A DNA stretch of 64,000 nt from a virus (Duplodnaviria; Caudoviricetes). Below, in pieces: positions 34,236 to 64,000 of the stretch. How positions within the stretch are numbered: position 1 is the stretch's first letter; the number at the start of each line of letters is the position of its first letter. The position numbers were made by a program, and so were the translations under genes. The stretch lies in IMG/VR virus record IMGVR_UViG_3300027759_000001, one strand, 5' to 3'. The notes under the pieces are model-generated. The model was not told the origin of the DNA and did not search any database. It saw only the letters and a list, made by a program, of their open reading frames with translations.

Positions 34236-37200
34236 ATGCCGAATTATCAAAGACTTACGGATAGAGTATTAGCACCAAGTGTGTCTATAAATGATATTTT
34301 ACATATTGTTATTACAGGTGACACATCTCAAAACCCTGCTGGTTCATCTTATAAAGCCACATTAGAACAAGTTGCTTCAGTTATTGGTAGTGTTGGTACA
34401 TCAGGAACAAACGGTACAGATGGTACTTCAGGAACAAGCGGAGTGAATGGAACTTCAGGAACTAACGGATCAAGCGGAGCGAATGGAACTTCAGGAACTA
34501 ACGGTACTTCAGGAACTTCAGGAACTTCAGGGACGAGCGGAACTAACGGAACAAATGGAACGAATGGTACTAACGGAACTAATGGTACTTCAGGAACAAG
34601 CGGAGCAAACGGAACTTCAGGGACTAATGGAACAAGCGGAGCAAACGGAACTTCAGGAACTAATGGTACTAGTGGAACAAACGGAACGTCAGGAACTAAC
34701 GGAACAGATGGGTCTTCAGGTACAAATGGTACAAACGGAACGGATGGTACAAACGGAACTAATGGTACAAACGGAACGGATGGTACAGACGGAACAAGTG
34801 GTACTAATGGGTCTTCAGGGACTAACGGAACAAGTGGTACTAATGGGTCTTCAGGGACTAACGGAACAAGTGGTATATCGGGAGTAAATGGAACATCAGG
34901 TACAAACGGAACTTCAGGAACTAATGGTACAGATGGAACTTCAGGAACAAACGGAACAGACGGAACTTCAGGTACAAATGGAACAGATGGTACTTCAGGA
35001 ACAAACGGGACAGACGGAACTAGCGGAACAAATGGTACGGACGGTACTAACGGAACTAATGGTACGGACGGAACTTCAGGAACTAATGGTACGGACGGAA
35101 CTAACGGAACTAATGGTACGGACGGAACTTCAGGAACAAACGGGACAGATGGTACTTCAGGTACAAATGGTACAGACGGAACTAATGGAACAGATGGTAC
35201 TTCAGGAACTAATGGTACAGACGGAACTTCAGGTACAAATGGAACGGACGGAACTTCAGGTACAAACGGAACTGATGGAAGTAGTGGAACAAACGGAACA
35301 GACGGTACTTCAGGAACAAACGGAACAGACGGTACTTCAGGAACTAACGGAACAGATGGAAGTAGTGGTACAAACGGAACAGACGGTACTTCAGGAACAA
35401 ACGGAACAGACGGTACTTCAGGAACTAACGGAACTGATGGTACTTCGGGAACAAATGGTACTAGTGGAACAAATGGTACGAATGGTACATCAGGTACAAA
35501 TGGTACTTCAGGAACTAATGGTACTAATGGTACTAATGGAACTAACGGAACATCAGGTACCAATGGTACAAGTGGAACTAACGGAACGTCAGGAACAAAT
35601 GGCACAAACGGGACTTCAGGAACTAACGGTACTAATGGTACATCAGGAACAAATGGCACATCGGGAACAAACGGAACATCAGGAACTAACGGAACTGATG
35701 GTACTTCAGGAACTAACGGAACTGATGGGACTTCAGGAACTAACGGAACAGATGGAAGTAGTGGTACAAATGGAACGGATGGAAGTAGTGGTACAAATGG
35801 AACGGATGGGACTTCAGGAACAAATGGTACAGACGGCACTTCAGGAACAAATGGTACTGACGGAACTTCAGGGACAAATGGAACCAACGGTACGGACGGA
35901 ACTAATGGAACAGATGGTACTAGCGGAACAAATGGTACAGATGGAACAAACGGTACGGATGGGACTAGTGGCACAAATGGAACTGATGGTACTTCAGGCA
36001 CAAACGGAACAGACGGCACTTCAGGGACAAATGGTACAAATGGAACTGATGGTACTTCAGGTACAAACGGAACAGACGGCACTTCAGGGACAAATGGTAC
36101 AAATGGAACTGATGGGTCAAGCGGTACAAATGGAACTGATGGATCAAGCGGTACTAATGGAACTGATGGATCAAGTGGTACTAACGGCACTTCAGGAACT
36201 GACGGTACGGATGGGACTAGTGGAACAAATGGTACGGATGGAACTAGTGGAACAAATGGAACTGATGGTTCAAGTGGGACTAATGGAACGGATGGAAGTA
36301 GCGGAACAAATGGTACTGATGGTTCAAGTGGGACTAATGGAACGGATGGAAGTAGCGGAACAAATGGTACTGATGGTACTAGCGGAACAAATGGTACTAA
36401 CGGAACAGATGGAACTAGCGGAACAAATGGTACAGACGGAACTAATGGAACTAATGGTACAGACGGAACTAATGGAACAGATGGAAGTTCTGGAACAAAT
36501 GGAACGGATGGTACTTCAGGCACTAATGGAACGGATGGTACTTCAGGGACAAACGGAACAGATGGTACTTCAGGTACTAATGGAACAGATGGTACTTCAG
36601 GTACTAACGGAACGGATGGTACTTCAGGGACAAACGGAACAGATGGTACTAATGGAACGGATGGTACTAGCGGAACAAACGGAACAGATGGGACTTCAGG
36701 GACTAACGGTACTAATGGAACAAATGGTACTGACGGATCAAGTGGTACTAACGGAACAGATGGTACTTCGGGGACAAATGGAACAGATGGTACTAACGGA
36801 ACGGATGGTACTTCAGGGACAAACGGAACAGATGGTACTTCGGGGACAAATGGAACAGATGGTACTTCAGGGACAAACGGAACAGATGGTACTTCGGGGA
36901 CATCACCCTTAATTTGTACTCCATTCTTATCGGGAGATTATTATTTTCAATCGGTAGGCTCAATATACAACGGACCTTCATATCCAAATATGGCATGGGG
37001 TCCTGGTCAAACATTAAGTGTATACGCACCTGAAGGTGTTATAGAATATATGTTAATTACAGGTTATACCGCATCAACAGGTGCGATATCTGCGGTTATC
37101 ACATATTGTTCAAATGTTAATTACAAAACAACATCGGGTGTTAATCTTTGTCTTGTAGGTGAACAAGGAACATCTGGCACAAATGGTACTTCAGGGACAA

Positions 37201-41767: not shown

Positions 41768-44700
41768 ATGGCAAATGAATTCATAGCCCGTAATGGGGTC
41801 AAATCATTAGGTGGTGTTACATTTCCATATACTGGAGTGAGCACCACATACACAATTAATTCGGATAATTATCTAATTGATTGTACTAGCGGGACATTTA
41901 ATGTCACCCTTCCAACTTCTGCAGGTATTGCAGGACAAATCTTTGTAATTAAAAATAGTGGATCAGGAACAATAACTCTTGCAACAACAGGAGGTCAAAC
42001 TATAGATGGAAGTTCAACAAAAACATTAACACAATATGGATCAATAACCGTACAAAGTGACGGTTCAAATTGGGATATTGCGGGATCTGACGGAACGTCA
42101 GGAACTAACGGCACTAGCGGAACATCAGGAACAAATGGTACCAACGGTACTAATGGAACATCAGGTACAAATGGAACTAACGGTTCAAGTGGAACTAACG
42201 GTACAAATGGGACATCGGGAACCAATGGAACTAACGGTACAAACGGTACTTCAGGAACAAATGGTACAAATGGAACAAACGGAACGTCAGGTACAAACGG
42301 TACTAGCGGAACGAATGGTACTAACGGAACAAATGGTACGAGTGGAACTAACGGAACTAATGGTACATCAGGTACAAATGGTACTTCAGGAACTAATGGG
42401 ACTAACGGAACTTCAGGAACTAATGGTACTTCAGGAACTAACGGTACGAATGGAACTAATGGGACTTCAGGTACGAATGGTACTAATGGAACATCAGGGA
42501 CTAACGGAACAAATGGAACTTCAGGTACTAATGGAACTAATGGTACTAATGGAACTTCAGGTACTAATGGAACTAATGGTACTAATGGAACGTCGGGTAC
42601 TAATGGAACCAACGGAACATCGGGAACCAATGGGACTAACGGTACAAATGGAACATCAGGTACAAATGGAACATCAGGTACAAATGGAACTAACGGATCT
42701 TCAGGAACCAATGGAACTAATGGTACAAACGGAACTAGCGGTACGAATGGAACTTCAGGAACAAATGGAACATCAGGAACTAACGGCACAAATGGTACTA
42801 ATGGATCATCAGGAACTAATGGAACGTCAGGAACAAATGGAACCAACGGTACAAATGGTACTTCAGGAACTAACGGAACAAATGGTACAAATGGAACTTC
42901 AGGGACTAACGGAACTTCAGGAACTAATGGTACCAACGGAACATCGGGTACTAATGGAACTAATGGTACTAACGGAACAAATGGAACATCGGGTACTAAC
43001 GGGACTAATGGTACAAACGGAACTTCAGGAACTAACGGAACAAATGGTACGAGTGGGACCAATGGAACTAACGGTACTTCAGGAACTAACGGAACAAATG
43101 GTACGAGTGGGACCAATGGAACAAATGGTACTTCAGGAACTAATGGTACGAGCGGGACTAATGGAACAAATGGAACATCAGGTACTAACGGTACAAACGG
43201 TACTTCAGGAACGAATGGAACTTCAGGTACTAATGGAACTAATGGTACAAACGGAACATCAGGAACCAACGGTACAAATGGTACCAACGGAACTAGCGGA
43301 ACAAATGGAACTAACGGAACTAACGGAACATCAGGTACTAATGGAACTAATGGAACATCAGGAACAAATGGTACCAACGGAACTAGCGGAACAAATGGGT
43401 CTTCAGGTACGAATGGTACCAACGGAACTAGCGGTACAAATGGAACAAATGGAACTAACGGTACAAATGGCACGAGTGGGACCAATGGAACAAACGGTAC
43501 TTCAGGTACAAATGGAACTAATGGTACAAATGGAACAAATGGTACGAGCGGGACTAATGGAACTTCAGGTACAAACGGAACATCAGGAACGAATGGAACT
43601 AATGGAACTAATGGAACTTCAGGTACAAACGGAACCTCAGGAACGAATGGAACTAATGGAACTTCAGGTACTAACGGAACCTCAGGAACAAATGGTACGA
43701 ATGGATCATCAGGTACAAACGGAACGAATGGAACATCAGGAACAAATGGTACCAACGGAACTAGCGGAACAAACGGTACTTCAGGAACAAACGGTACTTC
43801 AGGAACGAATGGTACCAACGGAACTAGCGGTACTAATGGAACAAGCGGCACAAATGGAACGAATGGTACAAATGGAACCAACGGAACATCAGGTACCAAC
43901 GGAACTAATGGTACAAACGGAACTAGCGGACTTTCTGGTGTTGATGGTACTGATGGAACATCAGGAACAAACGGAACTAGCGGAACTAATGGTACCTCAG
44001 GAACAAGAGGAACTAGCGGAACAAATGGTACAAATGGTACCAACGGAACTAGCGGAACAAATGGTACCAACGGAACAAATGGTACTAATGGAACTTCGGG
44101 AACAAATGGCACAAATGGTACTTCAGGAACAAATGGTACTAACGGAACCTCAGGTACTAATGGGACTTCAGGAACTAATGGAACAAATGGCACATCAGGA
44201 ACAAATGGTACTAACGGAACTTCAGGTACAAATGGAACATCTGGGACAAACGGTACAAATGGTACTAACGGAACATCAGGAACGAATGGTACAAATGGAA
44301 CTTCAGGAACGAATGGTACAAACGGAACTAATGGAACAAATGGAACGAATGGAACCTCAGGTACGAATGGTACTTCAGGAACGAATGGAACTAACGGTAC
44401 TAATGGAACTAGCGGTACAAATGGTACGAACGGAACTAGCGGTACAAATGGTACTTCGGGAACAAATGGAACAAACGGAACTTCAGGTACAAATGGTACT
44501 AACGGAACTTCAGGTACAAATGGAACATCTGGGACAAACGGTACAAATGGTACTAACGGAACATCAGGAACAAATGGTACAAATGGAACTTCAGGAACGA
44601 ATGGTACAAACGGAACTAGCGGGACTAATGGAACTTCAGGAACGAATGGTACAAACGGAACTAATGGAACAAATGGAACGAATGGAACCTCAGGTACTAA

Positions 44701-47700
44701 CGGAACGAACGGAACATCAGGAACTAATGGAACCAATGGTACAAATGGAACAAATGGCTCAAGTGGTACAAACGGAACTTCAGGTACTAACGGAACATCG
44801 GGTACAAACGGAACTAACGGCACTTCAGGTACTAATGGAACTAGCGGTACTAACGGAACAAATGGAACTTCAGGAACAAATGGTACTAACGGAACGAATG
44901 GTACGAGCGGGACCAATGGTACATCAGGGACAAACGGAACGAATGGAACTAATGGCACTAGCGGTACAAATGGAACAAATGGTACTAACGGGACAAATGG
45001 TTCAAGTGGAACTAATGGAACTTCGGGCACTAACGGAACAAACGGTACTAGCGGAACGAATGGTACTAGCGGAACGAATGGAACAAATGGAACGTCAGGA
45101 ACTAATGGTACGAACGGAACAAATGGTACATCAGGTACTAATGGAACTAGCGGAACGAATGGTACAAATGGAACTAGCGGTACCAACGGGACTAATGGTA
45201 CAAACGGAACTTCAGGTACCAACGGAACTAATGGTACTAGCGGAACTAATGGTACTAACGGAACATCGGGAACGAATGGGACAAATGGAACTTCAGGTAC
45301 AAACGGAACATCAGGGACTAATGGAACAAATGGAACTAGCGGTACGAATGGAACCAATGGTACAAATGGTACTTCAGGAACTAATGGTACTAATGGAACG
45401 AACGGAACCAATGGTACGTCAGGGACAAATGGAACTTCAGGCACAAACGGGACTAACGGATCATCAGGGACCAATGGAACGAATGGTACAAGCGGTACTA
45501 ACGGAACTAGTGGGACAAACGGAACAAATGGTTCAAGTGGTACCAACGGTACTAATGGTACTAGCGGTACGAATGGAACTAGCGGTACAAACGGAACATC
45601 GGGAACGAATGGTACTAACGGTACAAATGGTACTTCAGGGACAAACGGAACAAATGGTACTAGTGGAACTAATGGAACCAACGGTACTAGCGGAACAAAC
45701 GGAACTAGCGGAACAAACGGAACCTCAGGAACAAATGGAACAAATGGTACTAGCGGAACTAATGGAACGTCAGGAACTAACGGAACAAATGGTTCAAGTG
45801 GAACCAACGGTACGAATGGTACTTCAGGTACAAATGGAACTAGCGGCACAAATGGAACTAACGGAACTAGCGGTACTAATGGTACTTCAGGAACAAATGG
45901 CACAAACGGAACTAATGGAACAAATGGTTCAAGTGGTACCAACGGTACAAATGGAACATCCGGAACTAATGGTACTTCAGGGACAAACGGAACAAACGGT
46001 ACGAATGGTACTAACGGAACAAGTGGAACTAACGGAACAAGTGGGACGAATGGTACTAATGGAACATCAGGAACCAACGGAACTTCTGGAACTAATGGAA
46101 CAAATGGTACTAGTGGAACTAACGGTACTAATGGTTCAAGTGGAACGAATGGTACTAATGGAACTTCAGGTACTAACGGTACTAATGGAACATCAGGAAC
46201 AAACGGAACTTCGGGAACCAATGGAACAAACGGTACATCAGGTACTAACGGAACAAGTGGGACGAATGGTACTAATGGAACTAGCGGAACGAATGGAACA
46301 TCAGGTACGAATGGTACAAACGGAACTTCGGGTACAAACGGAACATCGGGTACGAATGGAACGTCAGGAACGAACGGAACCAATGGCACATCGGGAACTA
46401 ATGGTACTAATGGTACATCAGGGACGAATGGAACAAATGGTACTAACGGAACTAGCGGAACAAACGGAACTAGCGGAACGAATGGTACGAACGGATCTTC
46501 AGGCACTAATGGTACATCGGGGACAAATGGAACCAACGGTACAAATGGAACTAATGGAACCAACGGGACTTCAGGCACAAATGGGACTAGCGGAACGAAT
46601 GGAACTAACGGAACGTCAGGTACAAATGGAACAAACGGAACTAATGGTACTAACGGTACAAGTGGTACAAATGGAACCTCAGGTACAAATGGAACAAACG
46701 GAACTAATGGTACTAACGGTACAAGTGGTACAAATGGGACTTCAGGTACAAACGGTACGAATGGTACTAACGGAACATCAGGTACAAACGGTACTAATGG
46801 TACTAGCGGTACGAATGGAACTAACGGCACATCAGGGACTAACGGAACTTCAGGTACGAATGGAACAAATGGTACGAGCGGGACCAATGGAACTAACGGA
46901 ACTTCAGGTACGAATGGAACATCAGGAACTAACGGAACTAGCGGAACGAATGGTACAAATGGAACTAGCGGAACAAATGGAACATCAGGTACAAATGGTA
47001 CCTCAGGAACAAGAGGAACTAGCGGAACAAATGGTACAAACGGAACCAATGGTACGAGCGGAACAAATGGAACTAATGGAACATCAGGAACTAACGGAAC
47101 ATCCGGTACGAATGGAACAAATGGTTCAAGCGGAACTAACGGAACTAACGGATCATCAGGTACAAACGGAACTTCGGGAACCAATGGTACAAACGGTACA
47201 TCAGGAACTAATGGAACTTCAGGTACAAATGGAACTAACGGTACTAATGGTACGTCAGGTACAAATGGAACCAATGGTACATCAGGTACTAACGGAACTT
47301 CAGGTACTAATGGAACTAATGGTACTAATGGAACAAACGGTACTTCAGGAACAAATGGAACGAATGGTACTAACGGAACTAGTGGAACAAATGGTACTAA
47401 CGGAACAAACGGTACGAATGGGACTTCAGGAACTAACGGCACAAGCGGGACAAATGGTACTAACGGTACAAGCGGGACAAATGGAACGTCAGGAACTAAT
47501 GGTACGAACGGAACAAATGGTACATCAGGTACTAATGGAACTAGCGGAACGAATGGTACAAATGGATCTTCAGGAACAAATGGAACAAATGGATCTTCAG
47601 GAACAAATGGAACAAATGGAACAAATGGATCTTCAGGAACAAATGGAACAAATGGATCTTCAGGTACGAACGGCACATCAGGAACTAATGGTACAAATGG

Positions 47701-48700
47701 TACTTCAGGAACAAATGGTACTTCAGGAACAAATGGTACGAGCGGGACCAATGGAACAAATGGAACCAATGGAACCAATGGAACATCAGGTACTAATGGC
47801 ACTTCAGGTACCAACGGTACAAATGGTACCAACGGAACTAGCGGCACAAATGGTACTAATGGATCATCAGGTACTAACGGAACTTCAGGGACAAATGGCA
47901 CTAACGGAACATCAGGAACCAACGGTACAAATGGAACTTCAGGTACAAATGGCACTAATGGTACTAGCGGAACAAACGGTACAAATGGATCATCAGGTAC
48001 GAATGGAACTTCAGGTGTTAGTGGAGCGTCAGGTACTTCAGGTACTAATGGTACAAATGGATCATCAGGAACTAACGGAACATCGGGTACTAATGGAACA
48101 GGATTTAATTCAATATCACCAACAACAGATAATAATGTGTTAACTGCTAATGGAACCGCAAATTCAGCGAACTCAGAACCAAACTTAACATTCAATGCTT
48201 CAACAAACTTATTAACAGTAACGGGTAATGAAACTGTTAGTGGTATTTTAACTAGTCAATCTTCGGGATCATTAGTTGCAAATGGTAAATGGTCTTTAAT
48301 GGGTAACCCTACAACTTTGTTAACCTCAAATAGTTATTATGGTGAAGTCGTAACATTTGGGGGGGCAGGTGCAACCACCCAATTTTATATGTATTATTGG
48401 TCTAGTGGAAGTACGTGGGAACTTACTGACGCCAACGCGGCGGCAACATCAAGGGGGTTAATATCAATGGCAATAGATACTAGTTTCAGTGGAGGGATGA
48501 TGTTAAGAGGATATGTATATAATTCAACATGGAACTGGACACCAGGAGCAACATTATATTTAAGTGCCTCTGGCGCTGCCGGGGTTATAACATCAACACA
48601 ACCTTCAGGTAGTGCGGATATTGTAAGAGTTGTTGGATATGCCATTAGTGCCGATTTAATTTACTTTAATCCTTCGCAAGATTGGATTGAGTTAGCATAA
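41768..48700 (+). CDS. giant Gly-X-Y (GTN/GTS) repeat fibre protein 2, 2310 aa
   Basis: N-terminal tail-fibre-type domain (VTLP...G...IKN...TIDG...SDGSNW), one uninterrupted G-X-Y block, globular C-terminus. Confidence 0.85.
42083..48094 (+). repeat. G-X-Y block (668 triplets)
   Basis: 6012 nt in register. Confidence 0.95.
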
Positions 48701-48711: not shown

Positions 48712-49551
48712 ATGGCAATAATAACTAAATTAAATGACGTTTTATGTGTTAACATTTCAAAAATTGATAATGTTTTAAAAAGTAATGCGAAATTTTTTGA
48801 TGATAATACTTTTTGCCCAACACCAACACCTACACCAACAACTCCAGTTGGGACACCAACACCAACACCTACAAGAACATTAACTCCAACACCAACATTA
48901 ACAAGAACATTAACTCCAACACCAACAAATACACCTACATTAACTCAGACATTAACTCCAACACCAACAAATACACCTACATTAACTCAGACATTAACTC
49001 CAACTCCAACAAATACACCAACATTAACTCAGACATTAACTCCAACTCCAACAAATACACCAACATTAACAAGAACATTAACTCCAACTCCAACAAATAC
49101 ACCTACATTAACAAGAACATTAACACCAACGCCAACAAATACTCCTACATTAACAAGAACATTAACTCCAACACCAACAAATACTCCTACATTATCACAA
49201 ACATTAACTCCAACTCCAACAAATACGCCAACACCAACACAAAGATTAAGTTCAACGCCAACACCAACACCAACTCCAACTCTAACACCAACTACACCAT
49301 GTGGTAAAGATTGTTGTTATATAGAACTTTGTTATAGTACAATTGACTGTACGGACGCTTGTCAATGTAATCAAACTGTTAATGTATACCTATCTATTTG
49401 TAAATATACCGCATGTAGATTATCAAACGCATTTGGAATATTTGTAGATGACTCATGTACAACACCTGCGGCAGATGGTTACTATTCTAATACTGTTGAT
49501 TGTTATTATTGGGATGGGTCTTCCTCTTTAACATATCAAGGTCCTTGTTAA
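48712..49551 (+). CDS. Pro-Thr mucin-like putative virion protein with Cys-rich C-terminal domain
   Basis: Short N-terminal domain, ([12 protein letters not shown]) repeats, C-terminal domain with about 9 Cys. Confidence 0.85.
48901..49236 (+). repeat. 8 x 42-nt tandem repeat (T[RQ][12 protein letters not shown])
   Basis: Units start at 48901, 48943, 48985, 49027, 49069, 49111, 49153, 49195. Confidence 0.95.
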
Positions 49552-49586: not shown

Positions 49587-52500
49587 TTATTTTCTGTTAT
49601 CTATATAGAGGATTACTTCACTGTAGTACTCAATAAAATGGTCATTCCACAGATCCCATTTAATATTAACTCCATCCACAGAGAAAACTTGTATGTTATC
49701 AAACTGAGTTAAGATATTATCTCTAAAGTTTCTAAATTCTACTTTATGTTCTGGTGTTCTTAAATGCCATTCACCAACAATTTTTTTAACATTTTTTTTA
49801 ATGAAATCTAAATTTTCGGGTTTAAACATTTCGTATTCACCACCCTCACAATCTGTTTTAACAAAATCAATTCTATTTAATCCGTAAAGTTTAATAAACT
49901 TATCAAATGTAATAGACTCCATATGTGTTTCACCTCCAAATAATTGGTCGTGTTCAATCACACCATTAAAATTTGAAAGTCCTTTATTAATGTGAGTTAC
50001 AGGATGACCCAATGTATTTCTAATTAATGTTGTGAATTCACTTTCACTTGGTTCAATACAAAATACGTGTTTTGGTTTTTTATGTAGGATTGAATATGTA
50101 AAAGGACCAACACTTGATCCAATATCTAAAACGATATCCCCTTCTTCTACTTCAAAGAATTGTTCGTATAATCTCTGTTCAAATATTTCATTATACATTG
50201 CGTGTTTGTGATAATTACCATTATCGTCACCATTATTCATCCATCCCCAATCAAACTTAGGTAATGGATTACTATTGAGTAATTTATTGATTTCACCAAT
50301 AACGACTTCCGAAGTAATTTCTTTTGTACATTCAAACATCCGATCCGTATTCTTATGTAGTGGACACCAATTCCAATCACCGGCATCTAATCTATCTGAG
50401 TTAAAACATCCGTGACAAACACTTTCATTAATAACTCTATATGTATCTAATGTTGTTTCCGCCCATTTTTCACTAAATCCTGAAATCAAAACGACAGGTA
50501 ATTTACAAGCCCAAGCCAACCAAGATAATCCTGATCCGAGACCAATAAAGAACTCACATTCGGATAGGTCGTCAATTACTTCTTGTAAGTTACCTCCTTT
50601 AAAAATGGTTACACCTTTAGGGTAATGGTTATTCATGTATCCGTCACCTTCTTTAGAGTAGATCATACATTCATAACCTAAAGTATTAAGGTGGTCAACA
50701 ACTGCTTGCCATCCGTCAGGGTTGTTCCAATATTTTGATTGTGCGGTTGAGTGAAACCCAATACCAACTTTTTTCTTTTTAGGTGTGTTAGGTAATTTTA
50801 ATAGTGGTCTAACTTCTTCATAATCTAAACCTAAGATATCCGTTGCCGTTTTTTGTAATGGCATTTTCTTAAAATCAAATGGGTGTTTGTTATTATCGTA
50901 AACCCCTTCACTTGTATAATGCCAACCTAACCTATATTGTGCGTGTATATTAGTTACCAATTCACCAGGTTCAACAAACTCAATATCAGGGTATTGATCT
51001 TTAAATAAACTATTAAGGAAGGTTGATACTATAAGTTGGCAACCATGTTTTTTTCTAAATACCTCACAATAAGGAACCCAAGCCATTGTGTCACCTAATG
51101 ATTTTGATCCAAAAGAAATATATACTCTCTTATCTTTTAGATCTAATGTCTCATCATAAATTACTTCACCATTTTCTTCTACGGTTGTTCTCCATTTAAT
51201 AAAGTATTCTTTATTTAATTTAACCCAACTATTGATTGGTAATTCATTTTGATATGATATTTCATTTTTATCATCATAATATTTAATATTCAATTTGTTT
51301 TCTGTTGTCCCTTGTACTTCAAAATAAGGTTGGGTAACATAATGTCTAACAAAAGTATAATCTTTGGTTAATGGTTTGTTTTGGGTAATGTTAAGATTTG
51401 TAACTGCGTTATAAAAATTCAATAAATCTTCACCAAATGTATTATCGGGTAATATTTTATAAACATCTTTATTTTCAATAAGTTCAACCAATTGTTTTGA
51501 TATGGTTTTAACATCACCTTCTATTGGTGTTATATATCCATTAAACATACCCATGTATTGTGGTAAATCTCTTGTAAGGATTTTCATTCCATAATTGATA
51601 GATTCTCTAACAACCAACGGATTACATTCCCAAGTTGAGTTAAACATTAATACATCACAAGCCATCATGAATTTTTCAACGTCATTACGCTCACCCCATA
51701 CTTTTACGTTTGATGGTAAATTATTCATTATTGGACCCCAATAGTCTTCAAAGTTTGGAGCTTGGTTCCCAATAAAATGAAATTGGATGTCAGGGTTTGA
51801 TTCAATTAATTCTCTTGCAACCTCAACCCCTTCACCTTGATTTTTACCACTTGTCCATAACCCAACATTAAGTACGTGAGTTTTAAACATATCCAAACCA
51901 AGTTCTTCTCTTACTACAGTTTTTTTAATTAATGGGACTTGATTAAAATCACCATATATTTCATACTCCTCTAAAATTTTAGTTACCTTATTCTCAATTG
52001 GGTATAACGATAAAAACTTCATTGGTGTTTCATTTAAAAACGTTTCCTTTAAATGATAAGGGGTGACAAAACAATATGATTCAGGATTGAACTTTTTATG
52101 TGTTTGCGGGTTAAACCAAACATTATGACAAGTCTCAACCATTTTCCAAGTCCTATCATTTGAATAAAGTTGATTTAACAATGGTAGTGGGATTTTATTA
52201 AAACTTTCAAATCCTTCTAACATTTCTTCCGAATGAACAATATCAATATTATTGTTTTTAATAATATCAATTAACTCATATTTTCTTTTTGTGTCAGTTG
52301 TATCACCTAAACTAAAAAAATGACCTTCACCCAATAGATCAATTATTTTATCTCTTTGAACAACATATGTATTACTAAACTGAGAAAACTCAACCAAAAA
52401 TATTTCAATTTGGTCTTTGAATTTTTGAAGTTCTTGAATTCTTTTTAATACGAATTGAGGCATTCCACCTGTTGATAGGTGCGGTGTAAGGTACAATAAT

Positions 52501-53246
52501 TTAATTTTTTTATTCATTTCTTTGTTGTGATTTTTTTTTATTATTTCTTTAGATTTTAATAAATTATATTTTCTTTTTTCATCATCTTCACCCGAAAATA
52601 TTCCTTTATTATGTATTCGGTATATACCTCCAGGAAAATTTAAATACTTTATTTTTCCATAACAAGATATACGGTAGTTAATCCCCCAATCAAGATATGG
52701 TAATTCATACATCCACGGTTCAAATAAATTTTCTATTTTTTTAAAAACTTTACCAAAACCAACATAATTTTTTTCTAAAAGATTATCAGTAGTGACACAA
52801 TCTTTAATATCTAATGAAATTCCCCTCCACTCATCTATTTTAGGTGGTTCTATATGATTTTTATGTTTTAACCATTTTTCTCTATGTCCACAAAACACCA
52901 TGGTAGTATCAATATTATTATCTAAATAATCAACACTTTTTTGTAGAAGATCCATATTATCCCAATAGTCATCACCATCCAATATCGCAATATATTCACC
53001 CTTAGCTTTTGAGTATAAAAATTCAAAATTTTTGGTGGGACCTAAATTTTTATCAGGTTCAAAAAATTTAATCTTTTTATTTAGTTCGGCAATTCTCCTT
53101 ATATGTTGCATGCTTTTATCTGAGGAAAAATCATCTCTAACTAAAATCTCATAATCAAAATTTGTTTTTTGACCTAACGCAGAGATTAAAGCCTGTTCTA
53201 TATATTCCTCAAACATATATGAAACTATAATAACACTAACTTTCAT
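49587..53246 (-). CDS. multidomain enzyme: GT2 + GT4 + autotransporter heptosyltransferase (BAHT/TibC-like) + FkbM-type methyltransferase
   Basis: VSVIIVSY..RDD.S.D..LDGDD; E..PLVVRES..YG; SKSLGD..AW.PY..FRKKH and CHGC..WCP..FEC iron finger; LDIGSSVG..KTDCEGGEY. Confidence 0.85.
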   Translation of the reverse strand: MKVSVIIVSYMFEEYIEQALISALGQKTNFDYEILVRDDFSSDKSMQHIRRIAELNKKIKFFEPDKNLGPTKNFEFLYSKAKGEYIAILDGDDYWDNMDLLQKSVDYLDNNIDTTMVFCGHREKWLKHKNHIEPPKIDEWRGISLDIKDCVTTDNLLEKNYVGFGKVFKKIENLFEPWMYELPYLDWGINYRISCYGKIKYLNFPGGIYRIHNKGIFSGEDDEKRKYNLLKSKEIIKKNHNKEMNKKIKLLYLTPHLSTGGMPQFVLKRIQELQKFKDQIEIFLVEFSQFSNTYVVQRDKIIDLLGEGHFFSLGDTTDTKRKYELIDIIKNNNIDIVHSEEMLEGFESFNKIPLPLLNQLYSNDRTWKMVETCHNVWFNPQTHKKFNPESYCFVTPYHLKETFLNETPMKFLSLYPIENKVTKILEEYEIYGDFNQVPLIKKTVVREELGLDMFKTHVLNVGLWTSGKNQGEGVEVARELIESNPDIQFHFIGNQAPNFEDYWGPIMNNLPSNVKVWGERNDVEKFMMACDVLMFNSTWECNPLVVRESINYGMKILTRDLPQYMGMFNGYITPIEGDVKTISKQLVELIENKDVYKILPDNTFGEDLLNFYNAVTNLNITQNKPLTKDYTFVRHYVTQPYFEVQGTTENKLNIKYYDDKNEISYQNELPINSWVKLNKEYFIKWRTTVEENGEVIYDETLDLKDKRVYISFGSKSLGDTMAWVPYCEVFRKKHGCQLIVSTFLNSLFKDQYPDIEFVEPGELVTNIHAQYRLGWHYTSEGVYDNNKHPFDFKKMPLQKTATDILGLDYEEVRPLLKLPNTPKKKKVGIGFHSTAQSKYWNNPDGWQAVVDHLNTLGYECMIYSKEGDGYMNNHYPKGVTIFKGGNLQEVIDDLSECEFFIGLGSGLSWLAWACKLPVVLISGFSEKWAETTLDTYRVINESVCHGCFNSDRLDAGDWNWCPLHKNTDRMFECTKEITSEVVIGEINKLLNSNPLPKFDWGWMNNGDDNGNYHKHAMYNEIFEQRLYEQFFEVEEGDIVLDIGSSVGPFTYSILHKKPKHVFCIEPSESEFTTLIRNTLGHPVTHINKGLSNFNGVIEHDQLFGGETHMESITFDKFIKLYGLNRIDFVKTDCEGGEYEMFKPENLDFIKKNVKKIVGEWHLRTPEHKVEFRNFRDNILTQFDNIQVFSVDGVNIKWDLWNDHFIEYYSEVILYIDNRK

Positions 53247-55541: not shown

Positions 55542-56468
55542 ATGAAAAAAGTATGTTTAGATGTATTAGGATGTAGAGCGTTAGGTGATACTTTAGCAGT
55601 AACACCAACTTTAAGAAAACTTTATAATTCTTACGGTAAAAAAATATCTGTTGCGACTCATCACCCTTATCTATTTTTAGATAACCCATATGTTGATAAC
55701 ATCTATACCGATGTAACCGATGAAATAAAAGAAACTCACGAAGTATTCGTATCGTTTAATATTGGTTATCATCCAAATGGTATTTGTTATAAACATAACG
55801 CAATGGACATTAGACAATTCCATGCGATTAATCTTGGTTTTATGTTATCCAAAGATGAGATGGAAATGGATTACATTCCAAAACCAATTGACACAATAGA
55901 AGGTTTACCTGAAAAATATGTTTTAATTCATCCCGTGCAAAATTGGGACTCAAGAACTTGGGATGCAAAGAAATGGCAAATGTTAACCAAACTATTAAAC
56001 GAAAGAGGTATTGCCGTTGTGTCTATTGGTAAAGATTCGTCTGAACTTGGTGGATCTAATGTGGATAAACCTGTATTCAATTTCAAAATTGATTTAGGAT
56101 TAAACTTAATGAATAATACAGATATGGATCAGGCTTGGTACCTCATCCAAAATAGTATGTGTTTTATTACAATGGATTCAGGACTATTACATTTGGCGGG
56201 AACAACCGACGCAGAGATAATTCAATTAGGTAGTTCAATTAATCCTGAGTTTAGATCACCATATAGAAAAGGTTCACAAGAATATAAATATCATTACGTG
56301 GTTGGTGGTTGTGGTTTGAATTGCGCTTCCGACATGAGGTATGGTGTTAGAGAATGGCAATCAATACAAGGTATACCATCACTAGTTAATTGTTTGGAAA
56401 GAAAAGAAACCTTTGAGTGTCACCCAACAATTTTTGCGGTTTATAATAAAGTGTTAGAAATAGTTTAG
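55542..56468 (+). CDS. GT9 (heptosyltransferase)-like glycosyltransferase with Cys cluster
   Basis: ALGD.LA.TP.LR.L, VLIHP, ITMDSGLLHLAG, C.LNC...C...FEC. Confidence 0.85.
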   Translation: MKKVCLDVLGCRALGDTLAVTPTLRKLYNSYGKKISVATHHPYLFLDNPYVDNIYTDVTDEIKETHEVFVSFNIGYHPNGICYKHNAMDIRQFHAINLGFMLSKDEMEMDYIPKPIDTIEGLPEKYVLIHPVQNWDSRTWDAKKWQMLTKLLNERGIAVVSIGKDSSELGGSNVDKPVFNFKIDLGLNLMNNTDMDQAWYLIQNSMCFITMDSGLLHLAGTTDAEIIQLGSSINPEFRSPYRKGSQEYKYHYVVGGCGLNCASDMRYGVREWQSIQGIPSLVNCLERKETFECHPTIFAVYNKVLEIV

Positions 56469-58083: not shown

Positions 58084-59181
58084 ATGGCAACTGCAAGACC
58101 TTTCGCATATAACACAGGTTCAACCATAACAGGAACAATACAAATTGGTTCATTGGCCGTTGGTACGCCAACATCGGGATTTACTGGAAACCCTAGATGG
58201 TGGAATGGACCTGATGAAGATTTAGGGTATGTTATTTGTAGACCAAATACTAATGGAAATCAACCAAATCCTGATAATGTACCGGCTTATATCAGATTCT
58301 CAAGGTCAAAATTAAAAACAGACCAATCATTTATTAACTTAGTTAATTCTGTATTTAAACAAACATTTACAACGACCAGTGAGTGTACATCGTATTTAAC
58401 GACAAATGGGTATTGGACTTCTTATGTTTCTCCCCCAACACCAACACCAACATTAACTAATACGCCGACATTAACACCAACTCAAACACCAACATTAACT
58501 CAGACATTAACACCAACTAATACGCCAACATTAACAAGAACATTAACACCAACTCCAACTAATACACCAACACCTACAAACATTAATTCACAAGGATTTA
58601 GTTATTCTAACTTTGCGTCAACTGGAGGCACTGTTTCTGTTGGTAACGTATCACTTTCATCAAACATTCTTTTTTTAACAACTGCGGCTAATGGTCAGGT
58701 TGGTAATGTTTATAGAACAACCGCAATTCAATTTAATAGAAATTTCTCGGCTCAATGGTCAACATTTATCGGAGGAGGTACAGGTGCCGATGGATACTGT
58801 ATTCAATGGACACCAACTAATAACACTAACGGGACTGCAGGTGGTGGTGTAGGATACGTTAGTTCCGCAATAAACGCAATTACATTCTTAACATATTCAA
58901 ATAACAATTATACTTGGTATAAAAATAATGTTTCACAAGGTTCAACGAGTGTTACCCCAGGACTTTGGAGACAAACATTATATTTCTGGGGTGACTATAA
59001 TCATTCGGCACAAACATTTGCACTTTATTGGAGCACAACAAATAGTAAACCTGGTTCGGCAAATAAAACATTTACTAGTTTCTCATTTGACACAAGTTCT
59101 TATTACATGGGATTTGGTGCGGCAACGGGAGGAGCAAATGATAACCATCAATTACTTTCTTGGGTTTTAACATTCACATAA
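58084..59181 (+). CDS. virion protein: anchor domain + Pro-Thr linker + L-type (legume) lectin-like domain
   Basis: FLTTAANGQVG, GGTGADG, YMGFGAATGGANDNHQLLSW. Confidence 0.8.
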   Translation: MATARPFAYNTGSTITGTIQIGSLAVGTPTSGFTGNPRWWNGPDEDLGYVICRPNTNGNQPNPDNVPAYIRFSRSKLKTDQSFINLVNSVFKQTFTTTSECTSYLTTNGYWTSYVSPPTPTPTLTNTPTLTPTQTPTLTQTLTPTNTPTLTRTLTPTPTNTPTPTNINSQGFSYSNFASTGGTVSVGNVSLSSNILFLTTAANGQVGNVYRTTAIQFNRNFSAQWSTFIGGGTGADGYCIQWTPTNNTNGTAGGGVGYVSSAINAITFLTYSNNNYTWYKNNVSQGSTSVTPGLWRQTLYFWGDYNHSAQTFALYWSTTNSKPGSANKTFTSFSFDTSSYYMGFGAATGGANDNHQLLSWVLTFT

Positions 59182-59315: not shown

Positions 59316-59323
59316 TATTTATA
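59316..59323 (+). promoter_or_regulatory. putative late promoter TATTTATA
   Basis: 13 nt upstream of ATG 59337. Confidence 0.65.
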
Positions 59324-59336: not shown

Positions 59337-61502
59337 ATGCCAAATCAAATAACATTAACGGTATCAACTGGAACACCACCATATAATATTTATGTGTGTG
59401 ATATAACAAATACGTATTGTTATTTTGCAACAACTTTTGTTGGTGGAACAATAACCTTTGATTCTCCGGCACCATTAGAATATACAACACCAATTTTAAT
59501 AAAAATAATTGATTCACGTAATTGTGAATCATTCCAATATTACCAATGTGTCCCTACTCCAACACCAACATTGACACCAACATTAACACCAACCCCAACT
59601 GGTCCTTGTACTTGTTGTTGTCTTGCGGTTAGTTGTAATAATGGTAGTGGAGGATCTTTCACTTATACCGATTGTTTTGGAAACGTTATAGGTAATGTTT
59701 TGGTTGCTGGTAATTCTATTGTGTATTATTGTGGTAGTAATGTTACTAATTTAAATAACGTTGCGGTTAATTATGGATCACCTTGTGTTAGTGGAACTTG
59801 TATATTACCTGTTCCAACTGCAACTCTTACACCAACTCAAACACCAACTCCCACTAACACTCAGACTTTAACGCCAACACCTACATTAACACAAACTGTA
59901 ACACAAACATTAACGCCAACTCAAACACCAACACCTACTAACACTCAGACTTTAACTCCAACACCTACATTAACACAAACGTTAACTCAAACTAATACTC
60001 AAACATTAACTCCAACACCAACTAATACTCAGACGTTAACACAAACATTAACACCAACTAATACTCAGCCTTTAACTCAAACACCTACATTAACACCTAC
60101 ATTAACACAAACAGTTACAAGAACTTTAACCCCAACACCTACATTAACAAAAACATTAACACAAACTGTAACACAAACTTTAACACCAACCCCAACTAAT
60201 ACTCAGACGTTAACGCAAACTTTAACTCCAACACCTACATTAACACCTACATTAACTCAAACTAACACTCAAACATTAACGCCAACTTTAACTCCAACAC
60301 CTACTAACACTCAGACTTTAACTCCAACTCCAACTAATACTCAAACTGTAACTCCAACTAACACACAAACTTTAACTCCAACTCCAACTAATACTCAGAC
60401 GTTAACGCAAACTTTAACTCCAACACCTACATTAACACCTACATTAACACAAACTAATACACAAACTTTAACGCCAACTCCAACTAACACACAAACATTA
60501 ACACAAACAGTTACGAAAACTTTAACTCCAACACCTACATTAACACAAACTAATACTCAAACTTTAACTCCAACTCCAACTAATACTCAGACGTTAACGC
60601 AAACTTTAACTCCAACACCTACATTAACACAAACAGTTACGGGAACTTTAACTCCAACACCTACTAACACTCAAACTTTAACGCAAACTGTAACACCAAC
60701 TTTAACTCCAACACCTACATTAACACAAACAGTTACAAGAACTTTAACCCCAACACCTACATTAACTCAAACTTTAACGCAAACTGTAACACCTACATTA
60801 ACACAAACGTTAACTCAAACTAATACTCAAACATTAACTCCAACTCCAACTAACACACAAACATTAACTCAAACTGTAACACAAACTTTAACTCCAACTC
60901 CAACTAATACTCAAACTCCAACTCCAACTAATACTCAAACTGTAACCCCAACTCAAACATTAACGCAAACAGTTACGGGAACTTTAACACCAACTCCAAC
61001 TAATACTCAGACATTAACTCAAACATTAACACAAACAGTTACGAAAACTTTAACTCCAACACCGACATTAACACAAACTGTAACACAAACTTTAACTCCA
61101 ACTCCAACTAATACTCAGACGTTAACACAAACGGTTACGAGAACTGTAACTCCAACACAGACGTTAACACAAACAGTTACAAAAACTTTAACTCCAACTC
61201 CTACACCAACTCAAACTTTAACACAAACATTAACACAAACAGTTACAAAAACTTTAACTCCAACACCTACATTAACTCAAACTTTAACACAAACATTAAC
61301 ACAAACAGTTACGAAAACTTTAACTCCAACACCTACATTAACTCAAACATTAACACAAACAGTTACGAAAACTTTAACTCCAACACCTACATTAACTCAA
61401 ACTGTAACACCAACTCTAACTAGAACCGTAACACCAACTTTAACTACAACACCAACTAAAACTCCAACACCTACATTAACAAAAACTAAACCTCTTCCAT
61501 AA
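59337..61502 (+). CDS. mucin-like Thr-X repeat protein with Cys-rich N-terminal domains
   Basis: Two Cys-rich domains followed by a Thr-X tract running to the C-terminus. Confidence 0.85.
59817..61487 (+). repeat. Thr-X dipeptide-periodic tract (about 557 aa)
   Basis: [17 protein letters not shown]... with Thr at essentially every second residue. Confidence 0.95.
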
Positions 61503-61564
61503 TATATTTTAATTAAACTATTGTTTTTATTTTATTTAATTATATTTTTTATTAAAAAAGAAAT

Positions 61565-62812
61565 ATGAGAATATTTGTACAAATTGCATCTTACAGAGAT
61601 CCCCAATTAATCCCAACAATTAAAGATATGTTGGAAAAATCAAAAAAACCAAAAAACATTAGACTTGGTATCGCAAGACAATTTCACCCTGAAGACGGTT
61701 TTGACGATCTTTCAGAATATGAAAATGACAACAGATTTAGAATTTTAAATATACCTTACACCGATTCAACAGGAGTTTGTTGGGCAAGAAACTTGACACA
61801 ACAATTATATGAAGGTGAAGAATATACATTACAATTAGATTCTCACATGAGATTTGAACAGGATTGGGATGACACCTTAATCAAAATGATTAAACAATTA
61901 CAAAAGAAAGGATATAAGAAACCTTTGTTGACGGGATATGTTTCTTCATTTGATCCTGATAATGATCCACAAGGGAGAGTTAAAGAGCCATGGAGAATGG
62001 CATTTGACAGATTCACACCTGAAGGTTGTGTTTTCTTTTTACCTGAAACAATACCAGGTTGGGACAAATTAAAGTCTCCAATCCCCTCAAGATTTTATTC
62101 GGCACATTTCTGTTTTACTTTAGGTCAATTTTCAACTGAAGTACAACATGATCCTGAGTTTTATTTTCACGGAGAAGAAATTTCAATTGCGGTAAGAGCA
62201 TATACTCACGGATATGATTTATTCCACCCACATAAAACGGTTATTTGGCATGAGTATACTCGTAAGGGTAGAACAAAACAATGGGATGATGATAAAGAAT
62301 GGGGTAAACGAAATGAAAGATGTCATCAAAAGAATAGACAATTATTAGGTGTTGATGGTGAAGTTCCCGATAGTGATTTTGGGATCTATGGTTTAGGAAC
62401 TGAAAGAACAATACAAGATTATGAAAAATATTCTGGTCTATTATTTTCAAAAAGAGCGGTACAACAACACACATTAGATAAACAATACCCACCAAACCCT
62501 TACACATATAGTTCTGAAGAAGAATGGAAAGAATCTTTCTCTTCAATATTTAAACATTGTATTGATGTTAATTATGGTAGCGTACCTGAAACAGATTATG
62601 ATTTTTGGGTGGTAGCATTCCATAATGCAAAAGATGAAACGTTATATAGATTAGATGCTGGAATCGATGAGATTAATAGAATGAAAAATGATCCTGATGG
62701 TTATTGTAAAGTATGGAGAGAATTTAATGCTACGGATAAACCAACCTATTGGGTTGTATGGCCTCACTCTGTATCAAAAGGGTGGTGTGATAGATTAACA
62801 GGTAATTTATAA
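61565..62812 (+). CDS. GT60-like (Skp1/mucin-type) polypeptide N-acetylglucosaminyltransferase
   Basis: IFVQIASYRD, CWAR, LQLDSHMRF (DxH), FHGEEIS..VRAYTHGYD. Confidence 0.85.
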   Translation: MRIFVQIASYRDPQLIPTIKDMLEKSKKPKNIRLGIARQFHPEDGFDDLSEYENDNRFRILNIPYTDSTGVCWARNLTQQLYEGEEYTLQLDSHMRFEQDWDDTLIKMIKQLQKKGYKKPLLTGYVSSFDPDNDPQGRVKEPWRMAFDRFTPEGCVFFLPETIPGWDKLKSPIPSRFYSAHFCFTLGQFSTEVQHDPEFYFHGEEISIAVRAYTHGYDLFHPHKTVIWHEYTRKGRTKQWDDDKEWGKRNERCHQKNRQLLGVDGEVPDSDFGIYGLGTERTIQDYEKYSGLLFSKRAVQQHTLDKQYPPNPYTYSSEEEWKESFSSIFKHCIDVNYGSVPETDYDFWVVAFHNAKDETLYRLDAGIDEINRMKNDPDGYCKVWREFNATDKPTYWVVWPHSVSKGWCDRLTGNL

Positions 62813-62815: not shown

Positions 62816-63529
62816 ATGACTTTAGCAGTAATAACTCAAATTAGGAATGAATCAAAAAGATTAAAAGAGTGGGTAGAATTTCATTCTTCTTTTCATAAAA
62901 TAGACCATTTTTTATTTTATTTAGATAATCCTGAAGATAATTCTGAAGAAATGTTAAATGAATTAAAAAAAACATATAGCATTGATTATAAATTTACAAA
63001 TCCTATTGGTGAATATAATGGCAATAATTGTACAATAGCAACAGAAAGACAAAAAGAATCGTTTAAAGATGGTTTTATATTTTTAAGAGATAAATTTGAT
63101 TGGGTTGCAATTTTTGACGTTGATGAATGGATTGTACCTAATAACATAGATGATTATGATTTAAAAAAAACGTTATCTGAAGTTAGTGAAAACATTCTTT
63201 ATCTTCCTATGTATAATTTTATCCCACCTTTTGATTACGATAAATCAATTACTGAACAAAATTTTTATAGATGGTCGTGTCAAGAACGAATAGATAATGA
63301 ACATTTAAGTTGTGGTAAATCAATTATTAGAGGTAAAATTTATTTAGATAGAATATTTGATGTAGATGTTCATATAGGTCCAGCTCTTGATGGATATAGA
63401 AATAATGTAGATTTTAATTCAACAAACCACACATTTAGGTTACATCAATTTCAAGGACATATGGGACATTCTAATAAAAAATATGAAATTTTTGATGACT
63501 CAATAAAAAAAATAATAAATAAAAAATAA
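62816..63529 (+). CDS. GT92 / Glyco_tranf_2_4-like glycosyltransferase
   Basis: NE..RLKEWVEFH, FLFYLD, WVAIFDVDEW, KSII. Confidence 0.8.
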   Translation: MTLAVITQIRNESKRLKEWVEFHSSFHKIDHFLFYLDNPEDNSEEMLNELKKTYSIDYKFTNPIGEYNGNNCTIATERQKESFKDGFIFLRDKFDWVAIFDVDEWIVPNNIDDYDLKKTLSEVSENILYLPMYNFIPPFDYDKSITEQNFYRWSCQERIDNEHLSCGKSIIRGKIYLDRIFDVDVHIGPALDGYRNNVDFNSTNHTFRLHQFQGHMGHSNKKYEIFDDSIKKIINKK

Positions 63530-63535: not shown

Positions 63536-64000
63536 ATGAAGAAAATTTTTATAGATGGTGGAGCAAGAATTGCCGAATCATTTGACATAATTAATCGTGA
63601 TATGCCTCAATACTCTAATTTTGAATTTATATTGTACGAACCTCACCCAAATCATACTGATTTTTTAGAAAATCTTTCTAAAGAAAAAAATTTTAAATTT
63701 GTTAATGGTGCTATTTGGGATAAAACAGGATTATCCGATTTTTATCTTGCTATTGATTTTTATGGTGATCAAGGAAGTACATTATGTGATGACAAAAAAG
63801 AAAAATTAGATTTAGAAAATCCTATTAAAGTTAACACATATGATATTGTTGATATATTAAATGAGTTTAGTGATGATGATTATATTGTATTAAAATTAGA
63901 TGTTGAGGGTGGAGAGTATGATATTATACAGAGATTAATAGATACTAATAATTTACATAGAGTTAATGAGTATATTATAGAATGGCATGACCAATTTTAT
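63536..64000 (+). CDS. FkbM-family methyltransferase (truncated by window end)
   Basis: MKKIFIDGGA..., GAIWDK, IVLKLDVEGGEY; open to the window end; absent from the ORF track. Confidence 0.85.
   Translation, partial: MKKIFIDGGARIAESFDIINRDMPQYSNFEFILYEPHPNHTDFLENLSKEKNFKFVNGAIWDKTGLSDFYLAIDFYGDQGSTLCDDKKEKLDLENPIKVNTYDIVDILNEFSDDDYIVLKLDVEGGEYDIIQRLIDTNNLHRVNEYIIEWHDQFY

Follow-up and report, generated by a model that had tools for sequence, protein, structure and literature searches.

Does a phage-encoded glycosyltransferase of a family known from protist mucins act on the threonine-rich protein encoded directly upstream of it? This question is raised by two adjacent genes at positions 59337–62812 of a viral DNA stretch (IMG/VR record IMGVR_UViG_3300027759_000001; Duplodnaviria, Caudoviricetes), which was analysed over its full length of 64,000 nucleotides and is called the window throughout. 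The first gene encodes a protein with a long tract in which every second residue is Thr, written (Thr-X)n, and the second encodes an enzyme of the GT60 type (PF11397). We lean, a little beyond even chances, towards the reading that this enzyme puts the first sugar on the Thr residues of Thr-X tracts and that later enzymes extend and cap the glycan, giving a mucin-like stalk on the virion. An initial annotation, made from the nucleotide sequence without database searches, had arrived at a similar interpretation. It is partly supported: the acceptor, the donor sugar, the order of the steps and the location on the virion are its conjectural elements and are worded conditionally below.

The Thr-X protein starts with 160 residues that form two conserved Cys-rich β-sandwich domains, D1 and D2, and continues as a tract of 561 residues (residues 161–721) up to its end, TKTKPLP, with no distal domain after the tract in this copy. 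The initial annotation had described a Thr-X mucin of 557 residues; the length is corrected here, while the run to the C-terminus without a distal domain stands. Thr occupies 278 of the 281 alternate positions. The X positions are taken by Pro (77), Leu (74), Gln (67), Asn (22), Val (22), Lys (10), and Arg (4), with neither a Ser nor an acidic residue among them. Over its 561 residues, the tract hence consists of 50% Thr, 14% Pro, and 0% Ser; Pro makes up 27% of the X positions, and a Pro-Thr-Pro recurs roughly every 14 residues. The Thr residues are encoded by all four codons (ACT 135, ACA 112, ACG 26, and ACC 5), which indicates that Thr is maintained at the protein level, beyond a mere DNA repeat. 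As a long Pro/Thr/Ser-rich repeat tract predicted to be without a fold, it qualifies by composition as a putative mucin-like domain—an atypical one, because of the strict alternation and the ~34% of Leu or Val at X. A Pfam match of the protein to SATase_N falls within the repeat and is regarded as a compositional artefact. A three-copy complex prediction of tract residues 161–400 (score 0.00, pLDDT ~30) is not used as evidence either way. The stop codon of the Thr-X gene is separated from the start of the GT60-like gene by a 62-nt spacer. Contigs of three other freshwater metagenome runs cross this junction, from the last part of the tract over stop codon and spacer into the beginning of the GT60-like gene, with 0–1 mismatches, so that it is no assembly accident of the window.

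The enzyme is a true PF11397/GT60-type GT-A glycosyltransferase whose closest structural kin are polypeptide-modifying. The PF11397 match scores 244 bits against a cut-off of 21, and its two stretches jointly cover positions ~2–349 of the 352 in the profile. The hallmarks read from the sequence in the initial annotation—ASYRD, QLDSHMRF, and GEE—are all present, namely as IASYRD (residues 7–12), LQLDSHMRF (residues 89–97), and GEE (residues 203–205), and occupy invariant or near-invariant columns in an alignment of the window protein with 40 homologues. In these 41 sequences, D92, H94, H229, E204, and E205 are invariant. The same alignment served as input to an AlphaFold2 (AF2) model with a pLDDT of 95 and a pTM of 0.89. 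The best fold match of this model among Swiss-Prot models is Gnt1 of Dictyostelium (Q8T1C6; E 2e-25, TM 0.65, 23% identity), and every further match in that library is a polypeptide N-acetylgalactosamine (GalNAc) transferase. In the PDB, the polypeptide GalNAc-transferases of family GT27 (ppGalNAc-Ts) occupy all top 45 places among the 50 matches listed (E ~1e-10, 12–16% identity), and glycan enzymes of the TarS/RmlT type rank far below the polypeptide transferases. The solved structures were reached by fold comparison only: the enzyme sequence and the 41-sequence profile gave nothing meaningful against PDB sequences. D92-x-H94 together with H229 fits the Mn site of GT27 enzymes such as GalNAc-T2, as judged by spacing and not by a residue-level superposition. 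The protein begins directly with the first strand of the fold and, hence, has no signal anchor: neither a signal peptide nor a membrane anchor is present. At the other end, the model features an extra β-rich C-terminal domain of ~90 residues (~residues 325–415), which is also found in the bacterial enzymes. GT60 differs from GT27 in having no C-terminal ricin-like lectin domain (PMC8724618).

The GT60 enzymes of Dictyostelium and Trypanosoma cruzi transfer N-acetylglucosamine (GlcNAc) onto Thr of Thr/Pro-rich mucin-like repeats, and Gnt1 transfers it onto hydroxyproline of the protein Skp1 (PMC8724618, PMC9472816). The PF11397-like family as a whole comprises 4715 clusters at 50% identity. Bacterial genomes contain more than 566 GT60-like loci, the closest of which are those of Saprospiraceae and other Bacteroidota at 59–67% identity; this proximity hints at the phylum of the host. 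The term eukaryote-like, which had been applied to the proposed mucin, holds as an analogy only: the nearest relatives of the enzyme are bacterial, with Saprospiraceae at 67% identity compared with 23% for Gnt1. In the literature, no paper was found that describes a function of PF11397 or GT60 in phages or bacteria or that connects the family with them. Several metagenomic proteins of 1600–2460 residues (P0122, P0123, P0124, P0128, and others) carry up to four GT60-like stretches on one polypeptide. An RNA run (X15) also contains contigs with imperfect matches to parts of the GT60 gene; they may stem from a relative or from carried-over DNA and are not counted as expression.

The enzyme and the tract are linked by gene order among the related phages. 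In 35 of 52 non-redundant related loci, the ORF (open reading frame) directly upstream of GT60 carries a Thr-X tract, compared with 51 of 683 other ORFs—an odds ratio of 25. Only four other GT60 carriers are contained in the phage collection; the Xanthomonas and Stenotrophomonas jumbo phages among them are unrelated to this clade and provide an independent comparison. An eight-fold Thr-X codon pattern finds 64 matches in Xoo-sp13 and 122 in XacN1 (both Xanthomonas) and three in CM1 (Stenotrophomonas), all of them GT60-positive, with zero control matches, and none in the GT60-negative jumbo phages XbC2, SCTP-2, LR756508, and Mel-JY01. Synteny of GT60 with Thr-rich genes across phages, which the initial annotation had named as a check, thus holds. 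For XacN1, two or more Schiff-positive protein bands have been reported from virions, and of the two annotated glycosyltransferases of this phage, one is ORF334 (PMC5852040). ORF334 is the GT60 homologue, with 45% identity to the window enzyme. The reverse relation fails: among 40 viral records having a tract of at least 12 Thr-X pairs, only 12 contain the enzyme, and among the 12 near-complete ones, only 2.

In bacteria, a Thr-Pro or Thr-X tract ORF lies within 8 kb of the enzyme gene at 18 of 80 GT60-like loci. Four Burkholderiales genomes, those of Ralstonia, Paraburkholderia ferrariae, Achromobacter, and Paraherbaspirillum, each have a single long (Thr-Pro)n tract, and it is located at the GT60-like locus. 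The gene of Ralstonia sp. 25C (L268) is part of a type VI secretion system (T6SS) cluster and lies 1.2 kb from a VgrG gene (L268 10267–13131, − strand). This VgrG consists of Phage_GPD and gp5_C followed by a C-terminal (Thr-Pro)n tail of ~140 residues; the 6-Mb genome has no other long Thr-Pro tract. VgrG proteins with a (Thr-Pro)n tail near a GT60-like gene occur also in L292, L296, L298, and L249; the tract is unique in the genome in Ralstonia, L292, L298, and L249. In Gemmatimonadaceae (L239 7230–7955, + strand; also L235 and L240), a PqqD-like protein—of the type that recognizes ribosomally synthesized and post-translationally modified peptides—with a C-terminal Thr/Pro/Ser tail is encoded directly upstream of the GT60-like gene, and an HtrL_YibB-like gene follows directly downstream. 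The GT60-like gene of Sphingobacterium zeae (L262) is located downstream of a C39-peptidase ATP-binding cassette exporter and two genes that are unknown to Pfam. The L262 layout recalls clusters for modified, glycocin-like peptides, and Chitinophaga oryziterrae (L293) has same-sized ORFs at the same positions, as judged by size and position only.

The D1–D2 region assigns the Thr-X protein to a family. Alignment A2 of D1–D2 contains 20 invariant columns, ten of them Cys. A hidden Markov model of D1 finds a D1-family gene directly upstream of GT60 in most related viral loci, with lengths from ~100 to more than 3300 residues; the window copy has the arrangement typical of the family, D1–linker–D2 directly upstream of a GT60-like gene. 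So far as known, the D1–D2 family is confined to phage-like metagenomic contigs. It has no match in Pfam or PHROGs, the protein atlas gives unnamed viral clusters only, and fold searches yield weak, generic Ig-like matches only, from which no function can be assigned to this region. The members differ in what follows D2. Two relatives (L024 and L027) have nothing beyond it and represent D1–D2-only minimal members of ~155 residues; others continue with a Thr-X stalk of tens to ~1000 residues. Distal to the stalk, DUF285/BspA-like repeats (L017, L026, L038, and L042), a DUF5122 β-propeller (L057), or further small Cys-rich domains split by Thr-X linkers (L012, L045, and L055) are found. In the closest relatives, L010 and L012, whose GT60 is 95% identical, proteins of 1526 and 1428 residues carry ~870–1000 Thr-X residues and then distal domains. 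The window copy stops after the tract and has no such module, be it DUF285, β-propeller, or Cys-rich. The initial annotation had concluded from this end that the tract itself appears to be the function. This conclusion does not follow, since the upstream orthologues in related phages feature the same D1–D2, a Thr-X stalk, and then distal modules: These relatives mark the window copy as a headless allele within a phage-specific family of stalked fibres that is modular and hypervariable. D1–D2, as the conserved end, is presumably the attachment end. A D1-only ORF of 101 residues (33899–34204, + strand) stands directly upstream of a gene for a collagen-like protein of 2471 residues. In L066, L072/L074, and L077, too, the collagen-like gene that lies just upstream of GT60 has an ORF consisting of D1 only in front of it. 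It may be that fibre genes use D1 as a separate module for adaptation or assembly.

On the other side of GT60, the genes change from phage to phage. A GT92-like gene and then an FkbM methyltransferase gene follow in the window, as had been recognized from the sequence and as is confirmed by matches to PF01697 and PF05050. In L010 and L012, the next gene is GT34-like—in L012 fused to an O-methyltransferase—and is followed by two unknown genes, an HtrL_YibB-like gene (with FkbM in L012), and the DNA polymerase gene. In other relatives and in the Xanthomonas phages, a carbamoyltransferase and HtrL_YibB come after GT60. The conserved pair is GT60 with HtrL_YibB, which occurs also in Bacteroidota and Gemmatimonadota. 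By this comparison, the GT92-like and FkbM genes are a local insertion. A constant initiator with variable elaborating enzymes fits glycan diversification and argues against a fixed four-gene unit. The compact cassette of substrate, initiator, extender, and capper that had been proposed is not a closed one: the extender and the capper vary among relatives, and at least three further proteins encoded in the window have Thr-X tracts, so that the enzyme would serve several proteins.

In the reading that we favour, the Thr-X fibre proteins and the transferases would be made late in infection. The soluble, cytoplasmic GT60-like enzyme would transfer the first sugar from a UDP-sugar to Thr hydroxyls of the Thr-X tracts, not only here but also in the further lectin and fibre proteins of the phage that have Thr-X linkers. 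This would take place inside the infected cell, ahead of assembly, and the sugar would be an α-linked N-acetylhexosamine by analogy with the family. Variable downstream glycosyltransferases and methyltransferases (GT92-like and FkbM; further on, the conserved HtrL_YibB-like protein) would then extend and cap the glycan. The expected product is a stiff, hydrated, protease-resistant mucin-like stalk or hair that projects from the virion, with D1–D2 as its anchor.

Several observations weigh against this reading. Glycosylation by any bacterial or phage member of the family is deduced from comparative genomics. The synteny of the phage clade is inherited: the 52 loci are related, so that their conserved gene order counts as one evolutionary event and not as 35. 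Ten of 12 near-complete Thr-X-bearing viral genomes lack GT60, and the short Thr-X linkers in GT60-less genomes imply that, elsewhere, such a tract does its work without the enzyme. GT60 adjoins a carbamoyltransferase near the DNA polymerase, and not a long Thr-X gene, in the Xanthomonas phages and in some relatives (L006–L009). For a mucin, it is unusual that one in three X positions holds Leu or Val. Finally, the phage has other candidate protein glycosyltransferases, the GT9-like genes, and other Thr-rich candidate substrates, above all two collagen-like Gly-Thr-X giants.

The foremost rival holds that the enzyme acts on a non-protein acceptor—a host lipid-linked or cell-surface glycan or a phage polysaccharide—or at a later step of a glycan, with the adjacency to the Thr-X gene being conserved gene order only. 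Many glycosyltransferase and sugar-modifying genes around the enzyme would suit such a role, and for 62 of the 80 bacterial loci, a Thr-rich tract is missing from the 8 kb around the gene. The homologues of Verrucomicrobium and Saprospiraceae stand beside GT32/GT25-like enzymes, sulfotransferases, and HtrL_YibB, a neighbourhood that could equally be a polysaccharide cluster. However, the best structural matches are all polypeptide transferases, with the TarS/RmlT type far lower, four Burkholderiales genomes have their one long (Thr-Pro)n tract at the locus, and the presence or absence of Thr-X among jumbo phages tracks the enzyme. We consider this rival unlikely, while taking it seriously.

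Still less probable is that the tract remains unglycosylated, as a spacer of the Pro/Thr type or as a folded, Thr-faced β structure, and that the enzyme decorates other proteins such as the collagen-like giants or the capsid. A spacer would be in line with the Thr-X linkers of complete phages that have no GT60 and with the linker-like way in which the tract connects folded modules in the family; moreover, in L066, L072, and L077, the gene directly upstream of GT60 encodes a collagen-like Gly-Thr-Ser protein instead. A folded tract is conceivable since Leu, Val, Gln, or Asn occupies about two thirds of the X positions and Pro-Thr-Pro recurs every ~14 residues, which makes β-strand segments possible; the short Thr-X linkers, however, are modelled as disordered by AF2, with pLDDT <50. 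Against the spacer stands that the longest tracts cluster beside GT60: of 11 contigs with at least nine matches to the Thr-X pattern, six are GT60-positive, and every negative one is a fragment.

It is very unlikely that the enzyme acts in the manner of Gnt1 on hydroxyproline of Thr-Pro-Thr after hydroxylation of Pro. Gnt1 is the single best structural match, but it is the sole GT60 entry recovered from that library, so that its top rank says little about the acceptor. Pro fills more than a quarter of the X positions (27%), but it is the alternate-position Thr, and not Pro, that is conserved across lineages. The only dioxygenase seen, a 2-oxoglutarate/Fe(II) enzyme of the PhyH family, is encoded at 18902–19687; it resembles the small-molecule PhyH type and not prolyl 4-hydroxylases. 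Glycosylation of modified bases in the phage DNA is scarcely credible: the gene does lie near the DNA polymerase and beside a carbamoyltransferase in some relatives and Xanthomonas phages, and phage GT-A enzymes acting on 5-hydroxymethylcytosine do exist (bioRxiv 10.1101/2023.12.21.572611), but the known enzymes resemble base-J glucosyltransferase/TarP with the signature R..DDD..EDY/F, whereas the signature here is the DxH..H of polypeptide transferases, bacterial homologues are located in T6SS and peptide-export clusters, and no hydroxymethylase or TET-like gene is seen in the window.

Table 1. Coordinates of the Thr-X/GT60-like locus and of further Thr-X proteins in the window
Feature	Position	Strand	Evidence
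Protein of 166 aa with Thr-Pro/Thr-X tracts	33365–33865	+	
Protein of 279 aa, ~150 residues of Thr-X and a Cys-rich C-terminal domain; further likely substrate	48712–49551	+	
Protein with adaptor N-domain, 48-residue Thr-X linker, and L-type-lectin-like domain; further likely substrate	58084–59181	+	
TATTTATA motif, 21 nt before the ATG of the Thr-X gene	59316–59323	+	
Thr-X gene, 721 aa	59337–61502	+	sole open frame of at least 60 aa over the repeat
D1, N-terminal β-sandwich, ~72 aa, 4 invariant Cys	59337–59552	+	alignment A2; AF2 pLDDT ~85; HMM finds D1 in most related loci
Short Thr-Pro linker joining D1 and D2	59553–59603	+	model pLDDT <50
D2, Cys-rich β-sandwich, 6 invariant Cys	59604–59816	+	alignment and AF2 model
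(Thr-X)n tract, 561 residues, to the C-terminus; proposed O-glycosylated stalk	59817–61499	+	sequence composition
GT60-like (PF11397) GT-A glycosyltransferase, 415 aa; proposed initiating polypeptide transferase	61565–62812	+	Pfam E 3.4e-72; phrog_24687 E 8e-167
GT92/GT2_4-like GT-A glycosyltransferase; candidate extender	62816–63529	+	PF01697 E 9e-11; PF13704
Methyltransferase of the FkbM family, truncated at the window end; candidate for O-methylation of a sugar	63536–64000	+	PF05050 E 4.2e-9

The remainder of the window is rich in surface-protein and glycan genes. The transferases comprise GT2, GT4, GT9, GT11-like, GT92-like, and GT60-like enzymes, and the window also encodes FkbM and CmcI/TylF-like methyltransferases as well as LamG, SPRY/fibrinogen-like, and L-type-lectin-like proteins. 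The two collagen-like giants (34236–41651 and 41768–48700, both + strand) have 2471 and 2310 residues and consist of Gly-Thr-Asn/Ser/Asp triplets with globular inserts; with Thr at the X position throughout, they are alternative candidate substrates for the glycosyltransferases of the phage. A protein of 1219 residues (49587–53246, − strand) is a fusion of GT2, GT4, GT9-like, and FkbM methyltransferase domains, with a layout logic that resembles chlorovirus A064R. The GT9 gene at 55542–56468 is a weak candidate for a BAHT, i.e. a TibC/Aah-like protein heptosyltransferase: its match reaches 38 bits where the cut-off is 200, and lipopolysaccharide heptosyltransferases score much the same. The sugar genes of the window encode a PglD-like acetyltransferase, a DegT-like aminotransferase, and a cytidylyltransferase (19684–20990 and 25470–25928, both − strand), and together they suggest that the phage synthesizes an unusual amino sugar of its own. 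The DegT-like ORF has 214 residues and matches the N-terminal part only of a 360-position profile; it is possibly split or truncated.

The motif TATTTATA found ahead of the Thr-X gene (start at 59337) recurs 11–26 nt before the starts at 204, 1276, 8483 (− strand), 34236 (collagen-like), 54251 (LamG), and 55235, and further out (−42) before a PhoH-like gene at 16846 (− strand). TATTTATA corresponds to the T4 late motif TATAAATA in reverse. The late-promoter motif TATAAATA itself is not enriched over the window, with 16 matches compared with 12.5 expected. TATTTATA may be a late or structural-gene promoter element; its occurrence before the Thr-X, collagen-like, LamG, and head-region genes suggests that fibre proteins and transferases would be made late in infection. 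Ahead of the GT60 gene it is absent, and this gene may be read through from the TATTTATA of the Thr-X gene.

The source of the window is an uncultured, AT-rich (~30% GC), T4-like freshwater jumbo phage, as follows from three observations. The major capsid protein is of the T4 type (PF07068, E 2e-73), with an uncultured 484-kb phage, a Microcystis phage, and Flavobacterium phages as its nearest relatives. The runs containing the stretch come from more than ten studies and mainly carry freshwater, lake, or sediment metagenome labels, with one from soil. Contigs with close homologues reach ~300 kb and encode T4 gp13, a family-B DNA polymerase, and superoxide dismutase. In the nearest viral record, G001, the GT60-like gene is absent. 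The so-called Moraphages (PMC12619734) look like another lineage and contributed nothing specific. The capsid protein (2763–4592, + strand) has 609 residues, the better of its two Gp23 Pfam stretches covering residues 343–594. Its tblastn alignments span approximately half of the protein in two pieces, which suggests that it probably carries additional sequence relative to T4 gp23.

Among known systems, the protist GT60 enzymes and Gnt1 are the closest, with PF11397 and the GT-A fold in common; Gnt1 is likewise soluble and without a signal anchor. The phage enzyme differs from Gnt1, to which it is 23% identical, by its extra C-terminal β domain of ~90 residues, by being phage-encoded with bacterial nearest relatives, and by having a putative donor and acceptor. 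With the GT27 ppGalNAc-Ts, it shares the DxH and distal His pattern and the presence of a second domain after the catalytic one; it differs by the low identity (12–16%), and it would act in the cytoplasm, whereas GT27 resides in the Golgi. The serine-rich-repeat adhesins with GtfA/GtfB offer a parallel in organization: GlcNAc is put on a long alternating Ser/Thr-X stalk in the cytoplasm, and variable extenders encoded nearby follow. In that system, however, a GT4 (GT-B) pair initiates, the repeats are Ser-rich, and export is by accessory Sec. The Pro/Thr linkers of cellulases are also O-glycosylated, extended Thr/Pro spacers, with a length of tens of residues. The fibril glycans of giant viruses are made by enzymes other than GT60-like ones. 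According to PMC9614988, it is virus-encoded machinery that glycosylates these surface fibrils. For mycobacteriophages, decoration of the C-terminal tails of virion proteins by phage-encoded glycosyltransferases is reported as experimentally proven (Freeman et al. 2023, PMC10527164, as cited in PMC12619734). The system described there uses other transferase families and short tails on capsid or tail-tube subunits, compared with an alternating-Thr stalk of 561 residues here. XacN1 is like the window phage in combining a homologue of the GT60-like enzyme (45% identity) with numerous proteins that have Thr-X tracts, and Schiff-positive bands are reported from its virions (PMC5852040); unlike in the window, its GT60 gene stands beside a carbamoyltransferase, and its virion glycoproteins are known as bands only. 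Glycosylation of phage virions and GT60 chemistry are, hence, each already known, and the proposed link between them comes entirely from comparing genomes.

A broader proposal is held with clearly less confidence. It is possible, though we would not count on it, that the bacterial and phage PF11397/GT60-like enzymes constitute a widespread cytoplasmic system of mucin-type O-glycosylation with (Thr-X)n or (Thr-Pro)n tails and stalks as substrates—on phage fibres, T6SS VgrG, and PqqD-like or exported peptides—and that eukaryotic GT60/GT27 mucin initiation could have its prokaryotic root there.

Protein glycosylation of phage particles has been demonstrated in few cases only, namely in mycobacteriophages and as bands in XacN1. 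If the favoured reading is wrong, the locus still shows clearly how modular and hypervariable a fibre gene can be in jumbo phages that are uncultured. If it is true, a very abundant clade of freshwater jumbo phages—one that accounts for thousands of metagenomic GT60 homologues at 75–95% identity—builds sugar-coated stalks hundreds of residues long with an initiator from a protist family. There would be a concrete, testable class of substrates for a whole bacterial family, which counts more than 4700 clusters at 50% identity, and the VgrG spikes of T6SS might carry glycans. Cultivable systems such as XacN1, Xoo-sp13, and the Burkholderiales could then be used to approach by experiment how mucin-type O-glycosylation of eukaryotes arose.

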